Shown piece by piece: positions 24,537 to 34,063 of a stretch of DNA of 64,000 bases (the stretch's first letter is position 1; each line of letters opens with the position of its first letter). Both the position numbers and the translations under genes were made by a program. The notes below the pieces were generated by a model. It did not search any database. It was given only the letters and a program-made list of their open reading frames with translations, and was not told where the DNA came from. Origin of the DNA: Sphingobacteriales bacterium 50-39 (GTDB taxonomy: Bacteria; Bacteroidota; Bacteroidia; Chitinophagales; Chitinophagaceae). The DNA is taken from positions 39,151 to 103,150 of the forward strand of contig MKTZ01000021.1 of the NCBI GenBank assembly GCA_001898505.1, read 5' to 3'.

Positions 24537-25004
24537 TCAATGTACTTTCCCATGTGCGGACAGGTCCTGGATCACGGGTCTGTCCCAGGACGTTTTATCA
24601 AAGATGGCGGCTGCCATGACACCGGTGGTAAAGCCGCAGGCGGAATGAGGGTCGTCGTACAGGCCCAGGATCTCAACTGTCCTGGGGTAAAAATGGAAGA
24701 TGATGGTACAGGTGGAGTCATTGGATGGGTGATACCGGGCGACGTTGTCGTCATAGGGTAATGTATCTATTATTGACCCCGACTCGTAGTTGGGATATCC
24801 TTTATTGATATAACAGGATATGGCAATCCTGCCGCTGTCCAATAGTTCCACCCTGATCTCGCCCGAGTGACCGAGAACATGATGTCTTTTGACAGTACCG
24901 GTGAGGGTATAGGTACCCGTGGGATTGATAAATTCGGGGGCGACGCCGCTACAGAGCAGGCTCTGGCAGAGTAGTACAACGGGGATGATGAACAGACGTT
25001 TCAT
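24537..25004 (-). CDS. hypothetical secreted protein
   Basis: Signal peptide MKRLFIIPVVLLCQSLLCSG. No recognisable domain. Confidence 0.5.
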   Translation of the reverse strand: MKRLFIIPVVLLCQSLLCSGVAPEFINPTGTYTLTGTVKRHHVLGHSGEIRVELLDSGRIAISCYINKGYPNYESGSIIDTLPYDDNVARYHPSNDSTCTIIFHFYPRTVEILGLYDDPHSACGFTTGVMAAAIFDKTSWDRPVIQDLSAHGKVH

Positions 25005-25270
25005 AAGCGTAGATGCTTTTTAATTGATTGAGAAAAAAGAGTTTCCTCATGTCTGTCGTCGGCTGGAAGATGTTTTTGAAAAAAATATCTTTCTAAAAAG
25101 TTGGAGGTATCAGAGAAATTGTTGCATCTTTGCACTGTTAAAGAAATCTTAAATCAAATGCAACGCACATTCGTCATAGCAAAGTTAGATAATAGCCGGG
25201 AGATTGGGCTATATCCTGTGCGGGGCTTATTTTGTATATAATCTATTTAGAATTAAAACACTATAACGAA

Positions 25271-25296
25271 CCCCGCAAGAGATTGCGGGGTTTTTT
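25271..25296 (+). terminator. intrinsic terminator (no annotated upstream protein gene on this strand)
   Basis: ccccgcaa-gaga-ttgcgggg forms a perfect 8-bp GC-rich stem followed by tttttt. Confidence 0.55.
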
Positions 25297-25480
25297 GGTG
25301 CCCCAAAAAACTGTGTTTCATTCTATGCTCAACCATAGGACACGACGATATAACTGTTCTTGCGACGGATATCAGGCCAGTCAAAACTGGTTTAATACCC
25401 GAATGGAAGAGGTATGTCTGCGACGACCGGGAACGATATCATGGGGATTCGTGTAATGCGGATCTTGAAAAATGGTGGAA

Positions 25481-25508
25481 CCCGGTCAATGATGACCGGG
25501 TTTTTTTT
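25481..25508 (+). terminator. intrinsic terminator closing a ~200-nt non-coding stretch
   Basis: cccggtca-atga-tgaccggg forms a perfect 8-bp stem followed by tttttttt. Confidence 0.6.
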
Positions 25509-25527
25509 GTGGTGTGCCGGACACTTT

Positions 25528-25600
25528 GATCTGTTCGTCTAATGGCTGAGGACGCGGGGCTTTCTACCTCGTAATATGGGTTCGAATCCCATACAGATCA
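25528..25600 (+). tRNA. tRNA, anticodon TTC by position (Glu), atypical U37
   Basis: Perfect 7-bp acceptor (gatctgt/acagatc). D-stem gtct/ggac. Anticodon stem cgggg/cctcg with loop ctTTCta. T-arm atggg-ttcgaat-cccat. 73 nt. A pyrimidine at position 37 is unusual, so the isotype call is tentative. Confidence 0.65.
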
Positions 25601-25611
25601 CGTAGTTGTAT

Positions 25612-25683
25612 TGCGATCTGGTGTAAGGGTAACACGCCACTCTCATAAGGTGGAGGATTCCGGTTCGAATCTGGAGGTCGCAA
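25612..25683 (+). tRNA. tRNA with CAT anticodon (Met, initiator or Ile-lysidine not distinguishable by eye)
   Basis: Acceptor tgcgatc/ggtcgca (one GU pair). D-arm gtgt-aagggta-acac. Anticodon stem ccact/ggtgg with loop ctCATaa. T-arm tccgg-ttcgaat-ctgga. 72 nt. Confidence 0.8.
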
Positions 25684-25688
25684 CGTAA

Positions 25689-25760
25689 TAGTCAGTAGCT
25701 CAATGGCAGAGCGCCGGCCTGTTAAGTCGGTGGTTGAAGGTTCGAGTCTTTCTTCATCCG
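25689..25760 (+). tRNA. tRNA-like sequence with GTT (Asn) anticodon arm but unpaired acceptor stem (probable pseudo-tRNA or tRNA-like element)
   Basis: Good D-arm (gctc-aatggca-gagc). Good anticodon arm (ccggc-ctGTTaa-gtcgg). Good T-arm (gaagg-ttcgagt-ctttc). The flanking 7-mers tagtcag and ttcatcc cannot base-pair. Confidence 0.35.
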
Positions 25761-25786
25761 CAAATATTCGTGAGTGCGACGAAGAT

Positions 25787-25863
25787 GGTGTTCTGGCAGA
25801 GATGGTTCTATTGCACCGGTCTGAAATACCGGCTATTGGGGTTCGATTCCCCGGGCACCGCCA
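25787..25863 (+). tRNA. tRNA-like sequence with GAA (Phe) anticodon arm, degenerate D-arm and weak acceptor pairing (possible pseudo-tRNA)
   Basis: Anticodon arm ccggt-ctGAAat-accgg. T-arm tgggg-ttcgatt-ccccg. 3' end ggcaccg-c-ca. The D-arm is irregular and the acceptor pairs only through several GU wobbles. Confidence 0.35.
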
Positions 25864-25976: not shown

Positions 25977-27050
25977 ATGGACAACCAACAACTTTCAAAT
26001 GTCATCAATGCGAGTGCATTGTTTGACAGCTACCTTATGGATGGGAAGTCCTTGTATCTGCATTGTTTCAATGCGCTCCCCAATGTTAGCTATATAGGTA
26101 ACATCGATGGAGAAAAGGCATATAAGGCTTTTACTGCGCAATTCAAGGAGAATATTGCACGGATCTATCAATACAGGTGGTATGACAATAGGGACAAGGA
26201 ATTTCGCTTCTCGAACACATTCGTAGTAATGAAAAATAACTGCATTGTCGAGTTCGATGCCGGATACTGCGAAATGCTGCACGACGGGACGGTGGATGTA
26301 TTTATCGATGAGGTGGTTAAGAAAGTGCGTCATTTTAAGGAGAGGAACAAGCGAAAACCGCTGGAGATCAACTTGGTCGTCTCGCATAACGGGAGATTGT
26401 CCCTGAAAACTATGGAGGTCAAGCGTAACAGACTGGATATCGATCTGTACTATGAAGATGATTTCAAGGAGACGGATGCCGTGATAAGGAAGCGCTTGAA
26501 TAAAAAGAACGATAAGGGGATCGTGCTGCTGCATGGTATTCCCGGGTCGGGGAAGACGACGTACTTACGTTATCTCATCGGCAAGATCAGGAAGCGGGTA
26601 TTGTTCCTTTCTCCGTCCCTTGCGGGGAGCCTGACCAGCCCGGATTTTATCCAGCTATTGATGGACAATCCCAATACGGTGCTTGTCATCGAAGACGCGG
26701 AGAATGTGATCATGGACAGGCGGCATCATTCCGGGAGTTCCGTATCCAATCTGTTGAATGTGTCTGACGGGCTGCTGGCGGACTGTCTGAATATCCAGCT
26801 GATATGCACTTTCAATAGCGCCCTGTCGCTGGTGGACAGCGCGCTGATGCGTAAGGGCAGACTGATCGCTAAATACGAATTTGGCAAGCTTAGCATCGCC
26901 AAGGCGCAACGTCTGAGCAAACATCTGGGTTTGGAGACGAATATCGATAAACCTATGACCATTGCTGAAATAACCAATCCTCATGAAAAGGACCATTTGG
27001 AAGGCCGGGTAGAGATCATCGGGTTCAGGACAAGCGCAATGAAAAATTGA
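25977..27050 (+). CDS. AAA family ATPase (classic clade) with a ~180-aa N-terminal domain of unknown function
   Basis: Walker A (GIVLLHGIPGSGKTTYL), Walker B (TVLVIEDAENV), sensor-1 (ICTFNS) and SRH with Arg fingers (DSALMRKGRL). The stop overlaps or abuts the next ORF. Confidence 0.85.
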   Translation: MDNQQLSNVINASALFDSYLMDGKSLYLHCFNALPNVSYIGNIDGEKAYKAFTAQFKENIARIYQYRWYDNRDKEFRFSNTFVVMKNNCIVEFDAGYCEMLHDGTVDVFIDEVVKKVRHFKERNKRKPLEINLVVSHNGRLSLKTMEVKRNRLDIDLYYEDDFKETDAVIRKRLNKKNDKGIVLLHGIPGSGKTTYLRYLIGKIRKRVLFLSPSLAGSLTSPDFIQLLMDNPNTVLVIEDAENVIMDRRHHSGSSVSNLLNVSDGLLADCLNIQLICTFNSALSLVDSALMRKGRLIAKYEFGKLSIAKAQRLSKHLGLETNIDKPMTIAEITNPHEKDHLEGRVEIIGFRTSAMKN

Positions 27051-27070
27051 ATAGAGTAATAGCATGTGTT

Positions 27071-27559
27071 ATGGAACAGTTGCAACAGAAATGGAGGCGC
27101 CTCGACAGGTCGCTGGTTGAAAGGGATATCGAGGACGAGATCAGGGCAGCCCTGGTCAGGGAAAAGGAAGCAGGTCATGAGTTGAAGGTCTGCATCGGCA
27201 CGGACAGCCAGGTAAAGGGCACGGAGACGGAGTTCGCCACTGTCATCGTCTTTATCCGGAAAGGTAAGGGTGGATTTATGTACGTCAATAGCGAGATCTC
27301 CCGGCAGAAAATGAGCGTCAAAGAGAGGATGTTGAAGGAGGTTGCCAGGAGTATTGCAGTGGCGTATCCGTTGAGCCGGCTGTTCACTTTGTATGGAGTG
27401 GATATGGAAGTGCATGCGGATATCAACACCAATCCTGGATTTAAGAGCAACGACGCTTTGAAGGAGGCGATGGGGTATATCCTGGGAATGGGATTTTCTT
27501 TCCGGGCCAAGCCCGAGGCATTTGCCAGCTCCAGCTGTGCGAATAAGGTGGTGCAATGA
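27071..27559 (+). CDS. small protein with predicted RNase H-like fold (YkuK/DUF458-like), translationally coupled to the AAA ATPase
   Basis: 163 aa from the ATG at 27071; an in-frame TTG at 27047 overlaps the upstream stop. Alternating beta/alpha pattern with acidic residues at strand ends (KVCIGTDSQ, TVIVFIR, GVDMEVHADIN), as in RNase H-like nucleases. Fold assignment is inferred, not demonstrated. Confidence 0.5.
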   Translation: MEQLQQKWRRLDRSLVERDIEDEIRAALVREKEAGHELKVCIGTDSQVKGTETEFATVIVFIRKGKGGFMYVNSEISRQKMSVKERMLKEVARSIAVAYPLSRLFTLYGVDMEVHADINTNPGFKSNDALKEAMGYILGMGFSFRAKPEAFASSSCANKVVQ

Positions 27560-27562
27560 GAG

Positions 27563-28585
27563 CTATGCGTCGGCAGCGCTATACAGTTCATGCATAAGCC
27601 GTACCTTTTTCCGGATGGATCGTACAAGACGGGAAGGGGAGAGGACCTTCAATCCCTCCCCAAATCCCATCAGTTCGCGTTCCAGCTCGAAATTTGGGAT
27701 CACCTGAATGCTGAAATGCACACCGGTGGGTGTGGTCTCGATGACCTTTTGGGTGTGATGAATGGGTTTGGTCCGGATGTAGGGAGCATGATAGTGATTG
27801 GCCCAGAAGATGATCTCTATGGGCGCCTCGCCTATATTTCGAGTGACGCCTATGATGGAATGAAAATACGTATGTGGGTCAAAATCCTTTTGCCGGCGAT
27901 AAACTTCTCCAGGCCCCAAGGCTATATCCTGGATGCGATCCAGCGCAAAAGTGATGATATCGCGACCTGCCTGTAGCATACCAAGGACAAACCAGCGGTT
28001 GCGGTACTCCTTGAGCAAGTAGGGATAGAATATCAGGTCGCTTGGTTGGCGGGCTTTGAAGGATTGATAGGTTAGCCGGACGGTGGTGGAGGAAATAATG
28101 GCTTTATAAAGTATATCCAGCCATTGCATGCCGGTGAGCAGATCATTCTTTTCAAAGTCGATGACGAGGGGAGACTGTGACTGTTCGCTGTGTATCTGAT
28201 CTTCCAGCCGGCTGATCATTTCGGACATGCCTGTCAGATGACTGAAGCCTTTGAATTGTTGTAGCAGATGGGATACTTCCTGTAGCACACCCAGGTCCTG
28301 GGAGCTGAGCGGGATATTGGTAATAGAATAGGATGGGTCCTCGTAGCTGTAATATTTCTTGTCGCGTACGATGATGGGGGCATTATAGCCCAGCTTGTCG
28401 CTACGCATGGCGTTGAGATCCATACGGATGGTCCGGAGGCTCACCCCGCGGCGGATGCCTTCGTATTCGTACAAGGCCTCATTACAGGCTTCGATAAGGT
28501 CTTCGATCGTCCATTTCCGGCGGCGGTTTTGCAGGCATTTATCGATGGTGCGATAACGGATAAGGGCATTGCGGTTGACGGGCAT
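27563..28585 (-). CDS. WYL-domain transcriptional regulator (YafY/HTH-WYL-WCX family)
   Basis: 340 aa. N-terminal wHTH (WTIEDLIEACNEALYEYEG...SLRTIRMDL). Central WYL domain hallmark (YPYLLKEYRNRWFVLGMLQAGRDIITFALDRIQDI). Divergent from rsr. Confidence 0.8.
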   Translation of the reverse strand: MPVNRNALIRYRTIDKCLQNRRRKWTIEDLIEACNEALYEYEGIRRGVSLRTIRMDLNAMRSDKLGYNAPIIVRDKKYYSYEDPSYSITNIPLSSQDLGVLQEVSHLLQQFKGFSHLTGMSEMISRLEDQIHSEQSQSPLVIDFEKNDLLTGMQWLDILYKAIISSTTVRLTYQSFKARQPSDLIFYPYLLKEYRNRWFVLGMLQAGRDIITFALDRIQDIALGPGEVYRRQKDFDPHTYFHSIIGVTRNIGEAPIEIIFWANHYHAPYIRTKPIHHTQKVIETTPTGVHFSIQVIPNFELERELMGFGEGLKVLSPSRLVRSIRKKVRLMHELYSAADA

Positions 28586-28722: not shown

Positions 28723-30237
28723 ATGAAATTCAATTTAAAAGCAAAAGTCAACAAGGTCCTGAACCATGAAGGCGAAAAAGCTTATGCGCTGACGCCTGAG
28801 ATAGAGCTGTATACGCTGGTAGCTGTTGCAACGCTGGACGACCAGTTCTACGAGAAGGGCGAAGACAAGCTGAACAGGCTTCGGCAACTGATCGGCAAGA
28901 ACGATGCAGGTTTCGTGGCAAAGCTGGCTGTCTATGCGCGCGAGCAGATGTATCTGCGCTCGATACCCCTGGTGTTGGCTGTAGAGCTGGGGAAGGCGCA
29001 TAGTGGGGATGGCCTGGTGGGACGGCTGGTTGCCCGTGTGATACAGCGTGCTGATGAGATAACTGAGCTACTTGGATATTACCAGCTGGCGAATGGTAGG
29101 ACAGAGGTAAAGAAATTGAATAAGCTGAGCAAGCAGATGCAAAAGGGATTGGCGGACGCATTTAATAAATTTGACGAATATCAATTCGCCAAGTACAATA
29201 AGGATACGCAGATAAAGACTCGTGATGCTCTGTTCCTGGTACACCCAAAGGCAAAGGACGAAGCACAGCAAGCGCTGTTCGACAAGATCGTAAAGGATGA
29301 ACTGATGACACCCTATACATGGGAAGTGGAGCTGAGCGCCCTGGGGCAGCAGCCATATAAAACATCGGAAGAACGTGCAGACGCATTCCGGGCAAAATGG
29401 GAGGAGCTGATCTTTAGCAATAAGCTGGGATATATGGCCACTTTGCGTAACCTCCGAAACTTTCTGGAAGCTGGCATCAGCAATGACGCATTGAATAAGG
29501 TATGCAAATACCTGTCCGACGAAAAGGCGGTGGCATCGAGCCGGCAGTTACCCTTCCGGTACCTCAGCGCCTATCGGGAGCTGAAAGAAGTGAAGGATGG
29601 ACGGGTAGGCGTTGTCCTGGATGCGCTGGAGTCGGCGATCCTTTATAGCGTGGCCAATATTCCTGGTTATGATATGAACACACGGGTGGTGGTTGCCGCG
29701 GATGTGAGCGGAAGCATGCAGACGTATATCAGCCCGAAAAGCAAGGTGCAGAATTTTGATATTGGGCTATTACTGGCCATGCTGATGCGCTACCGGTGCA
29801 AGAATGTTATCACAGGGATGTTTGGTAATACCTGGAAAGCGATCCAGGTGCCGAAGGTAAATATCCTGGCTAACGTGGAGACATTTCGGAGCAGGGAGGG
29901 AGAAGTGGGTTATTCCACCAATGGGTTCCTGGTAATACAGGATCTGCTTGACAGACGGCAGGTGGTAGATAAAATAATGATGTTTACCGACTGTCAGTTA
30001 TGGAATAGCCAGGGTAATGGCATCAATATAGCCTCCTTGTGGAAAAGCTATAAAAGGCTGGCTCCGAATGCAAAGCTTTATTTGTTCGACCTGGCCGGAT
30101 ATGGTAACACTCCGCTGAAAGTAGATCAAGATGATGTATACCTGATAGCGGGATGGAGTGATAAGATCTTCCATGTCCTGCAGGCAATCGAAGAGGGGGG
30201 AAGTGCGGTGGAGCTGATCAATGCAGTACCCCTATAA
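28723..30237 (+). CDS. rsr: Ro60-related protein Rsr (TROVE domain plus C-terminal vWA/MIDAS domain)
   Basis: 504 aa. TROVE-domain N-terminal two-thirds. C-terminal vWA with MIDAS DxSxS motif (AADVSGSM). Preceded by a rare strong AGGAGG SD-like element. Followed by tRNA-like RNA modules, as in known rsr loci. Confidence 0.9.
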   Translation: MKFNLKAKVNKVLNHEGEKAYALTPEIELYTLVAVATLDDQFYEKGEDKLNRLRQLIGKNDAGFVAKLAVYAREQMYLRSIPLVLAVELGKAHSGDGLVGRLVARVIQRADEITELLGYYQLANGRTEVKKLNKLSKQMQKGLADAFNKFDEYQFAKYNKDTQIKTRDALFLVHPKAKDEAQQALFDKIVKDELMTPYTWEVELSALGQQPYKTSEERADAFRAKWEELIFSNKLGYMATLRNLRNFLEAGISNDALNKVCKYLSDEKAVASSRQLPFRYLSAYRELKEVKDGRVGVVLDALESAILYSVANIPGYDMNTRVVVAADVSGSMQTYISPKSKVQNFDIGLLLAMLMRYRCKNVITGMFGNTWKAIQVPKVNILANVETFRSREGEVGYSTNGFLVIQDLLDRRQVVDKIMMFTDCQLWNSQGNGINIASLWKSYKRLAPNAKLYLFDLAGYGNTPLKVDQDDVYLIAGWSDKIFHVLQAIEEGGSAVELINAVPL

Positions 30238-30284
30238 TCTATGACAGCCTACGGTTCGCTCAAAGGACAGACATTTTAAAATAG

Positions 30285-30422
30285 TGAATGATGCCGTAGG
30301 ATAGGGTTACTTCGGTAGAGCATGCTGCTGTGCAGCAAGGTATAGGTTCAAGTCCTGTCGTTGCCGAAAGGCAATGTAGCTTAGTTTTAAAGTCCCTACC
30401 GTCTGTCGCTCATTCATTTTTA
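30285..30422 (+). ncRNA. Y RNA-like tRNA-mimic unit A (YrlA-type candidate)
   Basis: Conserved 5' motif gccgtaggatagggttacttcg. D-loop-like ggtagagc and T-arm-like aggttcaagtcct. GNRA hairpin ttgcc-gaaa-ggcaa. Ends pair (tgaatga...gtagg with cctac...tcattca). Run of five T after the closing stem. Confidence 0.45.
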
Positions 30423-30440
30423 AGACATTTTACAGGTGTC

Positions 30441-30600
30441 GTAGATAAGAGTTACTTCGTCATAACGAGTGGGTCGTGGGTTCGAATCCCACCGGGTCCT
30501 CTAGGCGGAACCATAGGAAATGGTTCCTTCGATGAGTGGACATGGGCCCGTAGCTCAGCTGGTAGAGCAACTAATACTCTTTTCGCCTTGTTACCCTGTA
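30441..30600 (+). ncRNA. Y RNA-like tRNA-mimic unit B (permuted T-arm / acceptor-hairpin / D-arm)
   Basis: 5' motif gtcgtagataagagttacttcg. Perfect T-arm gtggg-ttcgaat-cccac. Then cgggtcc pairs across an inserted hairpin (ggaacca...tggttcc) with gggcccg, followed by ta-gctcagctggtagagc (D-arm). No anticodon arm. Confidence 0.5.
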
Positions 30601-30622
30601 AATACTTTATTCGATGATTTTG

Positions 30623-30720
30623 GATGATGCCGTAAAGCAGGGTTACTTCGTAATTCAATTGGTTAGAAAGCTTCGCTTCTGCGAAGAAGCGCGGGTTCGA
30701 ATCCCGCCCAGTCCCTGGTT
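30623..30720 (+). ncRNA. Y RNA-like tRNA-mimic unit C
   Basis: 5' motif gccgtaaagcagggttacttcg (third copy). D-arm-like taattcaattggttagaa. Non-canonical anticodon-like hairpin. Perfect T-arm gcggg-ttcgaat-cccgc. No proper acceptor pairing. Confidence 0.45.
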
Positions 30721-30900
30721 GTCTGTTGCTTATTCAATTTCAAAACCGCTGGAAACGGTTCGTCCGACAGGACAAAAATCATTCCCTCACGGGAAAACTC
30801 GGTATATCGCCGGATTGTAAGGGTTTCAAAAATGCCCGGCAGTGCAGGTGTAGTAACTCCCTGTATCCTGTATGCAATTTGGCCTATATCTACCAAAGGG

Positions 30901-31090
30901 AACTGTGTGTCGAAGGTTCGACTCCTTCTCTCTCCGACATTTTAAGGAGAGGTAGCTCAGTTGGAAGAGCAACAGTCTGGAAGCATGGGTTCGAATCCCA
31001 TTCCGCCTGTCACGCGGATAGCTCAGATGGCTAGAGCACTACGCTGATAACGTAGAGGAACGGCAGTACACCGCTGCCCAAAAAAATGGT
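30901..31090 (+). ncRNA. two tandem circularly permuted tRNA-like modules (units D and E) ending in a hairpin and A-tract
   Basis: Unit D: T-arm gaagg-ttcgact-ccttc; acceptor hairpin tctctcc-N10-ggagagg; ta; D-arm gctcagttggaagagc; flanks actgt/acagt pair. Unit E: T-arm atggg-ttcgaat-cccat; hairpin tccgc-ctgtcac-gcgga; ta; D-arm gctcagatggctagagc; hairpin ctacg-ctgataa-cgtag; hairpin ggcag-tacaccg-ctgcc. Reading them as ordinary tRNAs fails because the acceptor strands do not match. Confidence 0.5.
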
Positions 31091-31435
31091 GACCAGAAAT
31101 AAAGCCAGGTCTATTCGCCGGCCGTCGCGTAGAAAGTCCGTAAGGACCGACTATTCACAGGCAATCCGGCATGAGCCTGCAGCCTGCTGTAAGAGGCAGC
31201 AAGATCTTTTCCATCACCGGCGACGCTCGCCATGGCCGTCCATAAGGATCACGCCCTCAGGGGCGCACATCTGAAGGATGCCTTCATGGATGCAGCCGGA
31301 AAAAGAAAGGACAAACTGTATCCAAGACAGGTTCCGCGCATGCGGGATGGAGAATAGCATCTGGCTTTTAAAAAGAAACAACGGGTCGTTGCCCGATATT
31401 TTAACAAGAACAACTAACAGATAAAACCTAAGACG

Positions 31436-32566
31436 ATGAAAAAGGTAATGATCAACGCCTATCAAATAGGCCTGTTGTACAAGCACGGGACTTACGTGCG
31501 TATGTTGGGGAAGGGCACTTATTGGGCCTTGCCCGGTGATAAGGTGGAGGTGCATGAGTTTACTAAACAGTTTACTCCCACCTGCGAGCTGAATATACTT
31601 TTAAAGGACCGCGAGCTGGCAGAACGTCTGCACGTGGTGGATGTAAAAGATAACGAGCTGGTGCTCCTTTACGAGAACGGCCTGTTGAAGCAGGCGCTCG
31701 GACCCGGCAGATATGCCTACTGGAAAGAGATCATAGTATATGGATTTGCCCGGGTGGATATCGGCAAGATCGAGATCACGGAAAACCTGGACCGGGTTAC
31801 GCTCCTGAGCAAGGTGGTGGCTCCTTATGTCCGGACCTATACGGTAGAAAGCTATGAAAAGGGCTTGCTTTTCGTAGACGGTAATTACGTAAAGACGCTG
31901 GAAAGTGGTGTATATTACTGGTGGAAGAACAGCATCGCCATCAACGTGGGTAAGATCGATACGCGTCAGCTGCAGCTGGAGATCAACGGGCAGGAAATAC
32001 TCACCCGGGATAAAGCGGCCCTGCGGGTCAACGCCTGGGCGCAGTACCGGATAACGGATATAGAAAAGGCGCTGTTGCAGAACAAGGAATACGAAAAGCA
32101 GCTGTACGTGGCATTTCAGCTGGCCCTCCGTGAGTATATCGGCAGATTGAGCTTTGACGAGCTGCTGGAAAAGAAGGAGACGGCGTTGCATGAACGTACC
32201 GGCGACGGCCAGGCACCAGCGACCGTGCTGGAAAAAGTACAGACCATGGCCGATGCGCTGGGCATACAAGTTGCCGGCTTTGGTATACGTGATATCGTGC
32301 TCCCCGGAGATGTGAAGGATATCATGAACCAGGTACTGGTGGCGGAAAAGAAGGCACAAGCCAATGTTATCCTTCGTAGGGAAGAAACGGCCAGCACCCG
32401 TAACCTGCTGAATATTGCCAAGCTCATGGAAGACAACCCCATGCTGTTCCGGCTAAAGGAAATGGAATACGTGGAAAAGATCGCAGAAAAAGTCAGCAGC
32501 ATCAGTGTCAACGGCAATGGTGTCCTGATCGACCAGTTGCGGCAGCTGTTCACGAGTCCTAAATAG
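31436..32566 (+). CDS. SPFH/band-7 (stomatin/flotillin-like) domain protein lacking an N-terminal TM anchor
   Basis: 376 aa. SPFH core motifs (ILTRDKAALRVNAWAQYRITD...ETASTRNLLNIAKL) and C-terminal coiled coil. No hydrophobic N-terminal segment. Stop is 4 nt before the rtcB ATG. Confidence 0.7.
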   Translation: MKKVMINAYQIGLLYKHGTYVRMLGKGTYWALPGDKVEVHEFTKQFTPTCELNILLKDRELAERLHVVDVKDNELVLLYENGLLKQALGPGRYAYWKEIIVYGFARVDIGKIEITENLDRVTLLSKVVAPYVRTYTVESYEKGLLFVDGNYVKTLESGVYYWWKNSIAINVGKIDTRQLQLEINGQEILTRDKAALRVNAWAQYRITDIEKALLQNKEYEKQLYVAFQLALREYIGRLSFDELLEKKETALHERTGDGQAPATVLEKVQTMADALGIQVAGFGIRDIVLPGDVKDIMNQVLVAEKKAQANVILRREETASTRNLLNIAKLMEDNPMLFRLKEMEYVEKIAEKVSSISVNGNGVLIDQLRQLFTSPK

Positions 32567-32569
32567 ACA

Positions 32570-34063
32570 ATGGGCGGCGACCTGCGTGTCGCTGCCCTCA
32601 AAAAAAATAAAATGGGAAAGTTAAAATTAAGAGGAAAAGATTTGCGGGCCATCGGCTACCCCGAGGGACCGGTGATCAGCATTGCCATGAATATCATGGA
32701 AAAGAATTACAAGTTTACAGAACAGGAGGATGTGATGAATTTATTGAAGCAAATACTGACCTCCCCGGTGGAATATGCCAATGATGCTGTGTTAGGTTTG
32801 ATAGCTCAGCAATTGATACCAAAGAAGGAGATAGAAGGGGCGGAAATCTCGCTGAACAATACGGGAATTTCGTTCAATATTTTTGGAGGGGACCAGATCG
32901 AGGAAGGGGCGACCCATCAAATGTACCAGGCGGCTAAGCTACCTATAGCTGTGGCGGGGGCTCTGATGCCGGATGCGCATGCGGGATATGGACTTCCTAT
33001 CGGAGGTGTATTGGCTACGGAGAATGCAGTGATCCCGTATGGAGTAGGGGTGGACATCGGCTGCCGGATGTGTCTGTCGGTGTTTGACATCGACCCGAAA
33101 GAACTGACACAACGGGATCATTATTTTACGCGCGAGCTGAATGAAGCCACTCTGTTTGGTGCTGGAAGACAGTTCGACGAGAGCACTCCGCACGAGGTAT
33201 TAGACCGGAAGGAATTCGACGAGATACCTATCCTGAAAGCCCTGCAGGGGCGGGCAGCCCGGCAGCTGGGTTCATCGGGCTCCGGTAATCACTTTGTCGA
33301 ATTCGGGAAGGTGGAGATCACGGAGAAGGATGCGATATTGGGTCTCGAGCCCGGTGAATATCTTGGTTTGTTGTCTCATTCCGGAAGCCGGGCTCTGGGT
33401 GCAAATATTGCCGGCCATTATACGAAGATTGCCAAACAGAAAAGACGGCTCCCCGGCGAGGCGAACAACCTGGCATGGCTGGATCTTACTGAAGAGGAAG
33501 GGATCGAATACTGGCTGGCGATGAACCTGGCGGGTGACTATGCATCTGCCTGTCACGAGGTCATTCATAATAAGATAGCCCGGCAATTGGGAAGGCAACC
33601 GCTGAAAAGAGTAGAAAACCATCACAATTTTGCCTGGAAGGAAATACATGAAGGAGGAGAGGTCATTGTCCACCGGAAGGGGGCGACCCCTGCGGGGAAG
33701 GATGTGCTGGGTATTATTCCCGGATCGATGACGGCGCCCGGATACATCGTAAAAGGTAAGGGACAAGAAGCCTCTTTATCTTCCGCCAGCCATGGAGCCG
33801 GCAGGAAGATGAGTCGTACGGCTGCCTTGAATGCCTTGACGCAGGACCTCTTAAAAAAGACCCTGCAGCAGCATGGAGTAAAGCTCCTGGGCGGAGGGCT
33901 GGATGAAGCGCCGCAGGCGTATAAGGACATTGAAGCGGTGATGCAGTCCCAGCGGCAGCTCATCGATGTGGTGGGAAAGTTTACGCCTCGCATCGTAAAG
34001 ATGGATGGCGCTGTGCCGAAACAATGGAAAAAACCCAAGAAGGAGGGACAGGACGAATCCTAG
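32570..34063 (+). CDS. rtcB: RNA-splicing ligase RtcB (3'-phosphate/5'-hydroxyl RNA ligase) with N-terminal extension
   Basis: 497 aa. Metal-binding and GMP-histidine motifs (DAHAGYG, GSMTAPGYIVKGKG, SASHGAGR, NHHNF). An alternative start is MGKLKL at 32612. Confidence 0.9.
   Translation: MGGDLRVAALKKNKMGKLKLRGKDLRAIGYPEGPVISIAMNIMEKNYKFTEQEDVMNLLKQILTSPVEYANDAVLGLIAQQLIPKKEIEGAEISLNNTGISFNIFGGDQIEEGATHQMYQAAKLPIAVAGALMPDAHAGYGLPIGGVLATENAVIPYGVGVDIGCRMCLSVFDIDPKELTQRDHYFTRELNEATLFGAGRQFDESTPHEVLDRKEFDEIPILKALQGRAARQLGSSGSGNHFVEFGKVEITEKDAILGLEPGEYLGLLSHSGSRALGANIAGHYTKIAKQKRRLPGEANNLAWLDLTEEEGIEYWLAMNLAGDYASACHEVIHNKIARQLGRQPLKRVENHHNFAWKEIHEGGEVIVHRKGATPAGKDVLGIIPGSMTAPGYIVKGKGQEASLSSASHGAGRKMSRTAALNALTQDLLKKTLQQHGVKLLGGGLDEAPQAYKDIEAVMQSQRQLIDVVGKFTPRIVKMDGAVPKQWKKPKKEGQDES

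Follow-up and report, generated by a model that had tools for sequence, protein, structure and literature searches.

RtcB RNA ligases are widespread in bacteria, but apart from the RtcR system of E. coli and Salmonella little appears to be known of their natural substrates, their cofactors and how they are regulated. The closest described systems are RNA-repair operons in which RtcB is joined either to Rsr and a Y RNA (YrlA) or to a Band-7 protein and a band-7-associated tRNA-like RNA (b7a-tRNA), operon types of Burroughs & Aravind (2016) as summarised in bioRxiv 10.1101/312249, from which the b7a-tRNA concept is also taken. Here we analyse a 64,000-nt stretch of DNA from Sphingobacteriales bacterium 50-39 (Chitinophagaceae; contig MKTZ01000021.1, positions 39,151 to 103,150), called the window below, in which the genes for an AAA+ ATPase and a YkuK/DUF458 RNase H-like protein stand between a short tRNA array and a locus encoding a WYL regulator, Rsr and RtcB. 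Coordinates are positions of the whole window, and features are on the + strand unless marked. Both protein families are known, and the locus is within the known class of RtcB RNA-repair operons (including Salmonella rsr-yrlBA-rtcBA): RtcB, Ro/TROVE and Band-7 are all present, together with candidate tRNA-like or Y-like RNAs, and the modular, shuffled 'syntax' of those operons is shared, relatives of the window locus carrying RlaP nucleotidyltransferases as well. It differs in that it adds an RtcB-linked BCS1-like AAA+ protein, a YkuK/DUF458 predicted nuclease, a bona fide multi-tRNA array and a terminator/antiterminator leader, and in that a WYL protein takes the place of the sigma54 activator RtcR as regulator. 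In a comparison that leaves the survey of Burroughs & Aravind (2016) itself aside, the link between tRNA arrays and DUF458, the RtcB-coupled BCS1-like AAA+ protein with a private N-terminal domain and the leader switch appear to be new. We favour, with some reserve, the reading that AAA+ and DUF458 are separate accessory components of a composite, RtcB-centred operon for tRNA repair or replacement.

A second comparison, and the nearest experimental precedent, is offered by the cyanobacterial L-arrays, such as the trn operon of Anabaena. There translation inhibitors or translational stress switch on an otherwise silent long tRNA array together with rtcB (PMC8421152), and both belong to the TrcR regulon, along with an AAA family ATPase and a slipin/Band-7 gene (PMC10272220, Table 1). 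Replacement or decoy tRNAs plus repair by RtcB have been proposed for this L-array system (PMC8421152, PMC10272220). Both the cyanobacterial and the present systems have divergent tRNA arrays that are tied to rtcB and, presumably in the present case, extra and horizontally variable, as well as an AAA family ATPase (All0263 in Anabaena, likened by its family label) and a slipin/Band-7 protein. However, the Anabaena regulon is dispersed, whereas array, ATPase, predicted nuclease and RtcB are here physically in one operon type; the regulon is controlled through TrcR operator repeats, whereas control here is apparently by an RNA leader (plus WYL); and the neighbour of the L-arrays is an HNH endonuclease, whereas the conserved neighbour here is DUF458. 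In the window, leaders, array, AAA+ and DUF458 form one transcription unit with the following features.

25098..25134, + strand: promoter-like element of Bacteroidota type (18-locus alignment and nhmmer)
25138..25304, + strand: leader RNA 1, a candidate attenuator or riboswitch
25330..25512, + strand: leader RNA 2, a diverged tandem copy of leader 1
25528..25862, + strand: short tRNA array (ARAGORN, and Rfam tRNA matches of 45-56 bits, one truncated)
25977..27050, + strand: AAA+ ATPase, 357 aa, ATG start (Pfam AAA PF00004)
27071..27559, + strand: YkuK/DUF458 RNase H-like protein, 162 aa (Pfam PF04308)

The gene neighbourhoods of Bacteroidota relatives were taken from look-ups of four homologues, a one-genome-per-species scan and tblastn/ARAGORN on 85 loci (L001-L085). 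Counts out of 52 refer to Chitinophagaceae-type AAA+ loci with at least 4 kb upstream and at least 6 kb downstream, and these co-occurrence statistics ignore kinship, with many loci coming from one genus. RtcB is encoded on the same strand just downstream of AAA+ in 46/52 loci, the distance from AAA+ stop to RtcB start being only 4-10 nt in L011, L035, L045, L046 and L072, and the independent contigs of the four look-ups have the same AAA+/RtcB layout. Band-7 is in the operon at 17/52 loci. DUF458 is found in 21/52, always inside the operon, and is absent from 31/52; 16 loci have it upstream of AAA+, and 5 have it downstream like the window. Immediately upstream, 24/52 loci carry 2-18 tRNA genes arrayed on the same strand, and the presence of this array follows that of DUF458: such an array (at least 2 tRNAs) precedes the operon in 18 of the 21 loci with DUF458 versus 6 of the 31 without it (Fisher p 2.8e-6, kinship ignored). 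The remaining loci are the 3 with DUF458 only and the 25 with neither, many of which belong to the genus Chitinophaga. AAA+ is thus a companion of RtcB and DUF458 a companion of the array, and the two do not make up a fixed pair. Chitinophagaceae and related Bacteroidota share this conserved operon type, which has the general layout promoter, leader switch, (variable tRNA array), (DUF458), AAA+, (PcfJ-like, Band-7 plus tRNA-like RNA, RlaP), RtcB, the members in parentheses varying between loci; in some genomes a WYL regulator and Rsr/Y RNA are added to it.

The association between DUF458 and tRNA genes is also found in phages. Both window proteins match PHROG families of uncharacterised role (PHROG 11311 in the case of DUF458), and DUF458 is present in 77 GenBank phage records. 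It lies inside a 22-tRNA array beside peptidyl-tRNA hydrolase in Ruegeria phage RpAliso (L090) and 1.2 kb from tRNAs in Pseudomonas phage Astolliot (L088), while in KVP40 (L089) it abuts a gene for a DUF2828/DUF7788 'RNA-binding protein', 5 kb from the tRNA cluster. Among 80 IMG/VR loci with DUF458, a tRNA is within 2 kb in 68, mostly within 150 nt, tRNAs flank DUF458 on both sides in 43, and all 907 tRNAs within 5 kb share the strand of DUF458, with 0 opposite. Only 5/80 viral loci with AAA homologues, taken as a matched control, have a tRNA within 2 kb (Fisher p 6e-26), and of 24 clusters at 70% identity, 17 show the association. We found no mention of it in the literature searched. The phage arrays (those of KVP40-like vibriophages, Otagovirus, roseophages and many IMG/VR contigs) are similar to that of the window in having DUF458 within or abutting the array and on the tRNA strand; they differ in lacking this AAA+ and a nearby RtcB, in being longer (10-30 tRNAs) and in mostly encoding CCA. 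Phage tRNA arrays are thought to counter tRNA-targeting defences. The linkage statistics in Bacteroidota and the DUF458-array association in both settings are, in our view, established.

A preliminary description of this locus, made from the sequence alone, had presented the two genes as a candidate ATPase-plus-nuclease module and had counted a lack of co-conservation across genomes as evidence against it. The pair is in large part not co-conserved, because DUF458 is missing from 31 of the 52 AAA+ loci, the gene order flips (16 vs 5), and phages carry DUF458 without this AAA+ and AAA+ without DUF458. The same description had offered a role as accessory to Ro/RtcB RNA surveillance, and this fits the same-strand position of AAA+ next to RtcB in 46/52 loci. 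Its observations are confirmed, with the small corrections given below, and its interpretation is partly supported.

The small protein matches Pfam PF04308 RNaseH_like (DUF458/YkuK, COG1978) with 122.5 bits (cut-off 25; E 1.7e-35), over 133/145 profile positions. Its start is ATG 27071, giving 162 aa, because the homologues are 159-162 aa long and begin MEQ..QQWR, and this ATG lies 20 nt past the AAA+ stop (TGA 27048-27050). The spacing of 20 nt given in the preliminary description is therefore right, whereas the length of 163 aa is not; the TTG that it proposed as an alternative start overlapping the upstream stop does exist at 27047 but is not supported by the homologues, so that close co-transcription is likely and translational coupling no more than possible. 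An RNase H-like or YkuK-type fold, suspected from strands ending in acidic residues (IGTDSQ, HADIN), is borne out by the Pfam match, and the structure model predicts the beta1-beta2-beta3-alpha1-beta4 order of RNase H-like proteins. The model has a mean pLDDT of 71 and is of good quality over residues 5-117; the shallow alignment makes its C-terminal third poor. As judged from the alignment, the candidate active site consists of D45 (IGTDSQ), E90, (E113, H115) D117 (HADIN) and N158. D45, E90, E113, H115 and D117 are invariant from Bacteroidota to phage members, N158 is D in phages, and these conserved acidic and His residues fall at RNase H catalytic positions, namely the end of beta1, alpha1, the end of beta4 and the C-terminal helix. 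DUF458 may be a metal-dependent nuclease with a D-E-D-(N/D) site. Sequence and profile searches of the PDB gave no relative, and the family has no solved structure. With 76-97% identity across genera, DUF458 is among the best-conserved proteins of the operon, and such strong purifying selection fits an enzyme contacting a conserved substrate. The founding member, Bacillus subtilis YkuK (PF04308/COG1978), belongs to the same Pfam family, has the same predicted fold and is about 29-32% identical to the window protein. However, its gene has different neighbours (DUF1797 (ykuJ), abbA, cbpB and ccpC), with no tRNAs, RtcB or AAA+ nearby. PcfJ-like proteins (PF14284) recur beside DUF458 (L029 8725-9981, L005 8734-9989 and viral L091 5243-6571); in the Bacteroidota operon their genes sit between DUF458 and AAA+, and the viral L091 contig has no tRNAs.

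In the AAA+ protein a lineage-specific N-domain (residues 1-175) is followed by an AAA module of the classic clade that resembles BCS1 (about 178-302) and by a small helical lid. Residues 183-302 match Pfam AAA PF00004 (E 1.1e-9), with Walker A GIPGSGKT (187-194), a BCS1-type Walker B VLVIEDAE (E239 D240), sensor-1 N280 and the arginines R292/R295 of the second region of homology (SRH). All these motifs are invariant in alignments of 28-42 homologues, in agreement with the classic-clade core recognised in the preliminary description. The N-terminal domain, which had been described there as having no obvious family, matches no Pfam or NCBIfam family over residues 1-175, NCBIfam giving only sub-threshold noise. 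Its family is small (229 clusters at 50% identity), and ten full-length members that were looked up come from Chitinophagaceae and Rhodoflexus (Cytophagales). In the structure model of the monomer (pLDDT 80.5) the N-domain is predicted to be a compact alpha/beta unit. BCS1 is the best sequence and structure match of the AAA module, BCS1 and YjoB are the nearest solved proteins by sequence, and profile matches to the PDB are limited to residues 183-299. The window protein shares with mitochondrial BCS1 and Bacillus YjoB the 'ED' Walker B (LLLEDID in those, LVIEDAE in the window) and a classic SRH. It differs from them in having no BCS1_N, no transmembrane anchor, a lineage-specific N-domain and RtcB as genomic partner. 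Membership of the whole protein in the BCS1 family was ruled out, since BCS1_N is not matched. The best matches assign the window to a Puia-like member of the Chitinophagaceae: AAA+ is 94% identical to a metagenomic protein and 88% identical to one from a Puia metagenome-assembled genome. Identity among the homologues is about 60-65%, versus 76-97% for DUF458. A search of plasmids gave only Bacillus YkuK and distant Cytophagales AAA genes, in unrelated contexts. In addition, relatives of AAA+ with about 40-50% identity over residues ~110-350 are carried by at least 549 viral stretches, many of them on contigs of 100-390 kb, huge-phage records included.

The array of the window holds three tRNAs and one remnant in 335 nt, where relatives have 2-18 tRNAs on the same strand and at the same place.

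25528-25601, + strand: tRNA-Glu(UUC) (ARAGORN/Rfam)
25612-25684, + strand: tRNA-Met(CAU) (ARAGORN/Rfam)
25694-25754, + strand: degenerate tRNA-Asn(GUU)-like remnant (Rfam model positions 6-65 only; no ARAGORN call)
25786-25862, + strand: tRNA-Phe(GAA) (ARAGORN/Rfam)

The tRNA-Asn-like remnant is probably a pseudogene, because its acceptor stem appears broken. What had been described as a tRNA cluster is a short, decaying local version of the operon-associated array, which about half of the related genomes have ahead of the DUF458/AAA/RtcB operon. Close relatives differ in array content: the window has Glu-Met-psiAsn-Phe, the Puia locus L006 (88% identical) has Glu-Asn-Ser-Phe, and L001 (82% identical locus) has nine other tRNAs. 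Array tRNAs with the same anticodon are on average 70-80% identical between loci, with a minimum of 45%, and 94% of the Bacteroidota array tRNAs have no encoded CCA. The commonest specificities are Phe, Asn, Lys, His, Met, Arg(ACG), Asp, Ser(GCU), Trp, Gln, Ile, Glu, Pro, Cys and Tyr, while Thr, Ala, Val and Gly are almost absent. We presume that these specificities overlap strongly with the targets of anticodon nucleases (colicin E5/D, PrrC, zymocin-type toxins and VapC), and take this as a lead only.

Upstream of the array, the TTTG -33 box of relatives has its aligned counterpart in GTTG at 25100-25103, and a TAnnTTTG-like -7 box is seen in CATCTTTG at 25125-25132, as compared with what we take to be the Bacteroidetes promoter consensus; in the alignment of 18 loci the promoter is conserved as TTTGG...CATCTTTGCA. 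Promoter and leader were detected by nhmmer in 73/86 sequences, in each case ahead of the operon and in its orientation, including loci with neither array nor DUF458. The leader is a 165-185-nt RNA ending in an intrinsic terminator. In leader 1, segment A GTGCGGGG (25218-25225) is followed by terminator arms B CCCCGCAA (25271-25278) and C TTGCGGGG (25283-25290) and a T-run (25291-25296). Leader 2, which was found through inverted and direct repeats, has A' GACCGGG (25425-25431), B' AACCCGGTCA (25479-25488) and C' TGACCGGGTT (25493-25502), then a T-run; it aligns with leader 1 and with the second copies in L006 and L001, a tandem second leader being carried by the window and its closest relatives. 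Segment A is complementary to arm B, identical to arm C and a constant 45-53 nt upstream of the terminator. The three segments change together by lineage: they read GCGGGG/CCCCGC in most loci, CCGGGC/GCCCGG in Chitinophaga, TCAGGG/CCCTGA in L005, CCGGGG/CCCCGG in L025 and GCAGGGC/GCCCTGC in L083. In an alignment of 35 sequences, 87% of the cells of the A:B helix are paired, and G-C pairs have changed to C-G and to U-A; 0/500 shuffles reach the observed covariation, and pairing falls to at most 53% when the partner is slid. On that alignment, register shifts give the certain terminator a slightly lower score, and the compensatory changes come from a few lineages and thus represent few independent events. 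The fold of leader 1 has a z-score of -2.8, and no Rfam match to the leader was found at E<=1. We consider the covarying switch itself established. With a terminator and a mutually exclusive, covarying antiterminator, the leader is a candidate attenuator or riboswitch as far as its anatomy can be read from the alignment.

The second transcription unit of the window contains rsr, the Y/tRNA-like RNAs, Band-7 and RtcB, and the WYL gene lies on the opposite strand between the two units.

27563..28585, - strand: WYL/WCX-domain transcription regulator (Pfam WYL and WCX; PADLOC WYL models)
28723..30237, + strand: Rsr, Ro60/TROVE plus vWA (Pfam TROVE E 7.7e-29, vWA_Ro60)
30238..31435, + strand: non-coding stretch with YrlA-like and tRNA-like modules (Rfam)
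31436..32566, + strand: SPFH/Band-7 protein (Pfam Band_7 E 5e-25)
32570..34063, + strand: RtcB RNA ligase, as the listed ORF (Pfam RtcB E 6e-83)

The WYL gene is divergent from rsr and converges on the DUF458 stop with a gap of 3 nt (27560-27562), so that the placement of the pair between the tRNA cluster and the WYL/rsr/rtcB genes agrees with that first described. A WYL regulator is found at the equivalent site in L001, L025, L039, L040, L049, L060 and L085. An operator shared by the array promoter region and the WYL-rsr intergenic region was sought, and no common repeat was found. The rtcB gene probably starts at ATG 32612 (MGKLKLRGK...), because its orthologues have the N-terminus MAKLKLKGKELRAIGYPEGP (MAKLKLKGK...). 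Within 30238-31435, YrlA-like modules are at 30468-30575 and 30904-31037 (three Rfam matches of 39, 31 and 31 bits, below the gathering score of 69) and tRNA-like modules at 30650-30708 and 30946-31078 (3-4 Rfam tRNA matches of 27-35 bits). Presumably these are a candidate Y RNA and candidate band-7-associated tRNA-like RNAs. Other inserts in the operons of relatives encode PcfJ-like proteins, two RlaP nucleotidyltransferases and a DEDD-like, exonuclease-looking ORF. In L030 (15199-17002) the two RlaP genes (PF10127, 'RNA-ligase-associated') lie between Band-7 and RtcB, and in Xanthomonas phage XacN1 an RlaP gene is 4 kb from the AAA homologue. In Chitinophaga a very basic protein of about 245 aa with no Pfam match fills the gap between AAA+ and RtcB (L056 11198-11944, other loci likewise); these loci have the leader and neither a tRNA array nor DUF458. 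On the other side of the promoter, 24537-25004 on the - strand encodes a protein of 155 aa, which begins like a signal peptide and has no Pfam match. The closest relatives also have it ahead of the operon (160 aa in L001/L002), to which it is probably unrelated.

What induces the composite operon, what DUF458 acts on and by which chemistry, and whether AAA+ contacts RtcB are matters of inference, which we picture as follows. Damage to tRNA or translation, by toxin anticodon nucleases, antibiotics or other translational stress, would relieve termination in the leader. The array would then supply replacement or decoy tRNAs, and DUF458 would act on the RNA of the array, either by processing the polycistronic tRNA/mRNA precursor or by trimming or clearing damaged tRNAs. 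RtcB would reseal broken tRNAs, and RtcB with the Ro/Band-7 scaffolds might be switched on directly or through the WYL regulator. The BCS1-like AAA+ ring may be an ATP-driven remodeller coupled to RtcB, which would reset or load the ligase or strip proteins off damaged ribonucleoproteins, a role analogous to that of DDX1/Archease in the metazoan RtcB complex. In a bolder form, which we put forward tentatively and on balance doubt, YkuK/DUF458 would be the dedicated nuclease of mobile tRNA arrays in phages and bacteria, a previously unrecognised tRNA-processing/repair enzyme, and the Chitinophagaceae locus would be a 'tRNA emergency' operon, in which a riboswitch-like leader senses damage and turns on spare tRNAs and DUF458 together with RtcB, the BCS1-like AAA+ serving as an ATP-dependent cofactor of RtcB.

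Several observations weigh against a composite tRNA repair/replacement operon. In the window, RtcB is 5 kb away from AAA+/DUF458 and in the other transcription unit. Viral AAA+ homologues (PA5oct, XacN1 and 80 IMG/VR loci, L173-L252) adjoin neither RtcB nor tRNAs, so that the AAA-RtcB link is confined to the Bacteroidota clade with this N-domain. Likewise, Bacillus YkuK and the viral clade L091-L098, which has PcfJ-like and ClpB-like genes nearby and no tRNAs, make the tRNA link a property of part of the DUF458 family, and the literature searched reports no function for YkuK/DUF458. Moreover, 73% of the phage array tRNAs beside DUF458 encode CCA, by which the trimming of CCA-less tRNA 3' ends was ruled out as a general role of DUF458. 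The distance to RtcB, together with the fact that tRNA clusters are common in bacteria, could also be taken to mean that housekeeping tRNA genes and two unrelated conserved genes merely came to lie near rsr/rtcB by chance. This is extremely improbable and already contradicted by the recurrence of the linkage in dozens of genomes with different flanking genes, the shared leader, the divergence and variability of the array tRNAs and the same DUF458-tRNA association in phages. An autonomous ATPase-plus-nuclease module for anti-phage or RNA-targeting defence, set beside the RNA-repair genes by chance, is very improbable as well. The layout is generally known to be common in defence systems, a WYL regulator is adjacent, and the AAA module has weak PADLOC matches to mad8 (E 9e-4) and TRIP13 (E 9e-3). 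However, these matches are of the generic P-loop type, and PADLOC-DB 2.0 gave 0 matches for DUF458 and 0 for ten flanking proteins; the flanking genes are ordinary and GC is flat, with no compositional island, so that the defence-island cargo suggested in the preliminary description is not supported. The two genes are not co-conserved and vary in order, each has a stronger partner in RtcB or the tRNA arrays, and their sequence conservation is very high, unlike that of fast-evolving defence genes. With nothing meaningful from PADLOC for both proteins and ten neighbours, the defence reading was dropped.

The composite operon also has to be weighed against readings in which each protein has another task. 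DUF458 could be a DNA-level nuclease, homing-endonuclease-like or recombination-promoting, which spreads or reshuffles the arrays, the AAA+ protein being unrelated. We regard this as unlikely, although the RNase H-like superfamily counts transposases, integrases and resolvases among its members (PMC3985635), phage tRNA arrays have DUF458 embedded in them, the content of the bacterial arrays turns over rapidly even among close relatives, and homing endonucleases accompany tRNA arrays in T4 (SegB) and cyanobacteria (HNH, L-arrays) (PMC8421152). Homing endonucleases are sporadic and quick to decay, whereas DUF458 is highly conserved across genera; it is always co-oriented with the tRNAs in the same transcription unit (0/907 opposite), which fits a co-expressed RNA enzyme; and YkuK is grouped with the RNase H1 clade, not with transposases (Majorek et al.). 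If DUF458 were instead a true RNase H clearing R-loops at heavily transcribed tRNA arrays, its embedding in the arrays of so many phage lineages would not be required. In that reading the AAA+ protein would pair with SPFH/Band-7 in protein quality control and neither protein would act in tRNA repair. Such SPFH-AAA partnerships are generally known to be well established (FtsH-HflK/C, m-AAA-prohibitins), and Band-7 does occur in the operon. Yet AAA+ is found with RtcB far more often than with Band-7 (46/52 vs 17/52), often abutting RtcB, and has neither a protease domain nor a membrane anchor; we hold this double assignment to be quite unlikely.

The locus type physically joins RtcB to a tRNA array, a putative nuclease, an AAA+ ATPase and an RNA switch. 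This points to tRNAs as the client of RtcB and provides concrete, testable partners for the ligase. Furthermore, the leader is a candidate for a new class of cis-regulatory RNA. For PF04308 (YkuK/DUF458), predicted to be RNase H-like in 2005 (Knizewski & Ginalski, as cited in PMC3985635), the association with tRNA arrays gives a first functional context.

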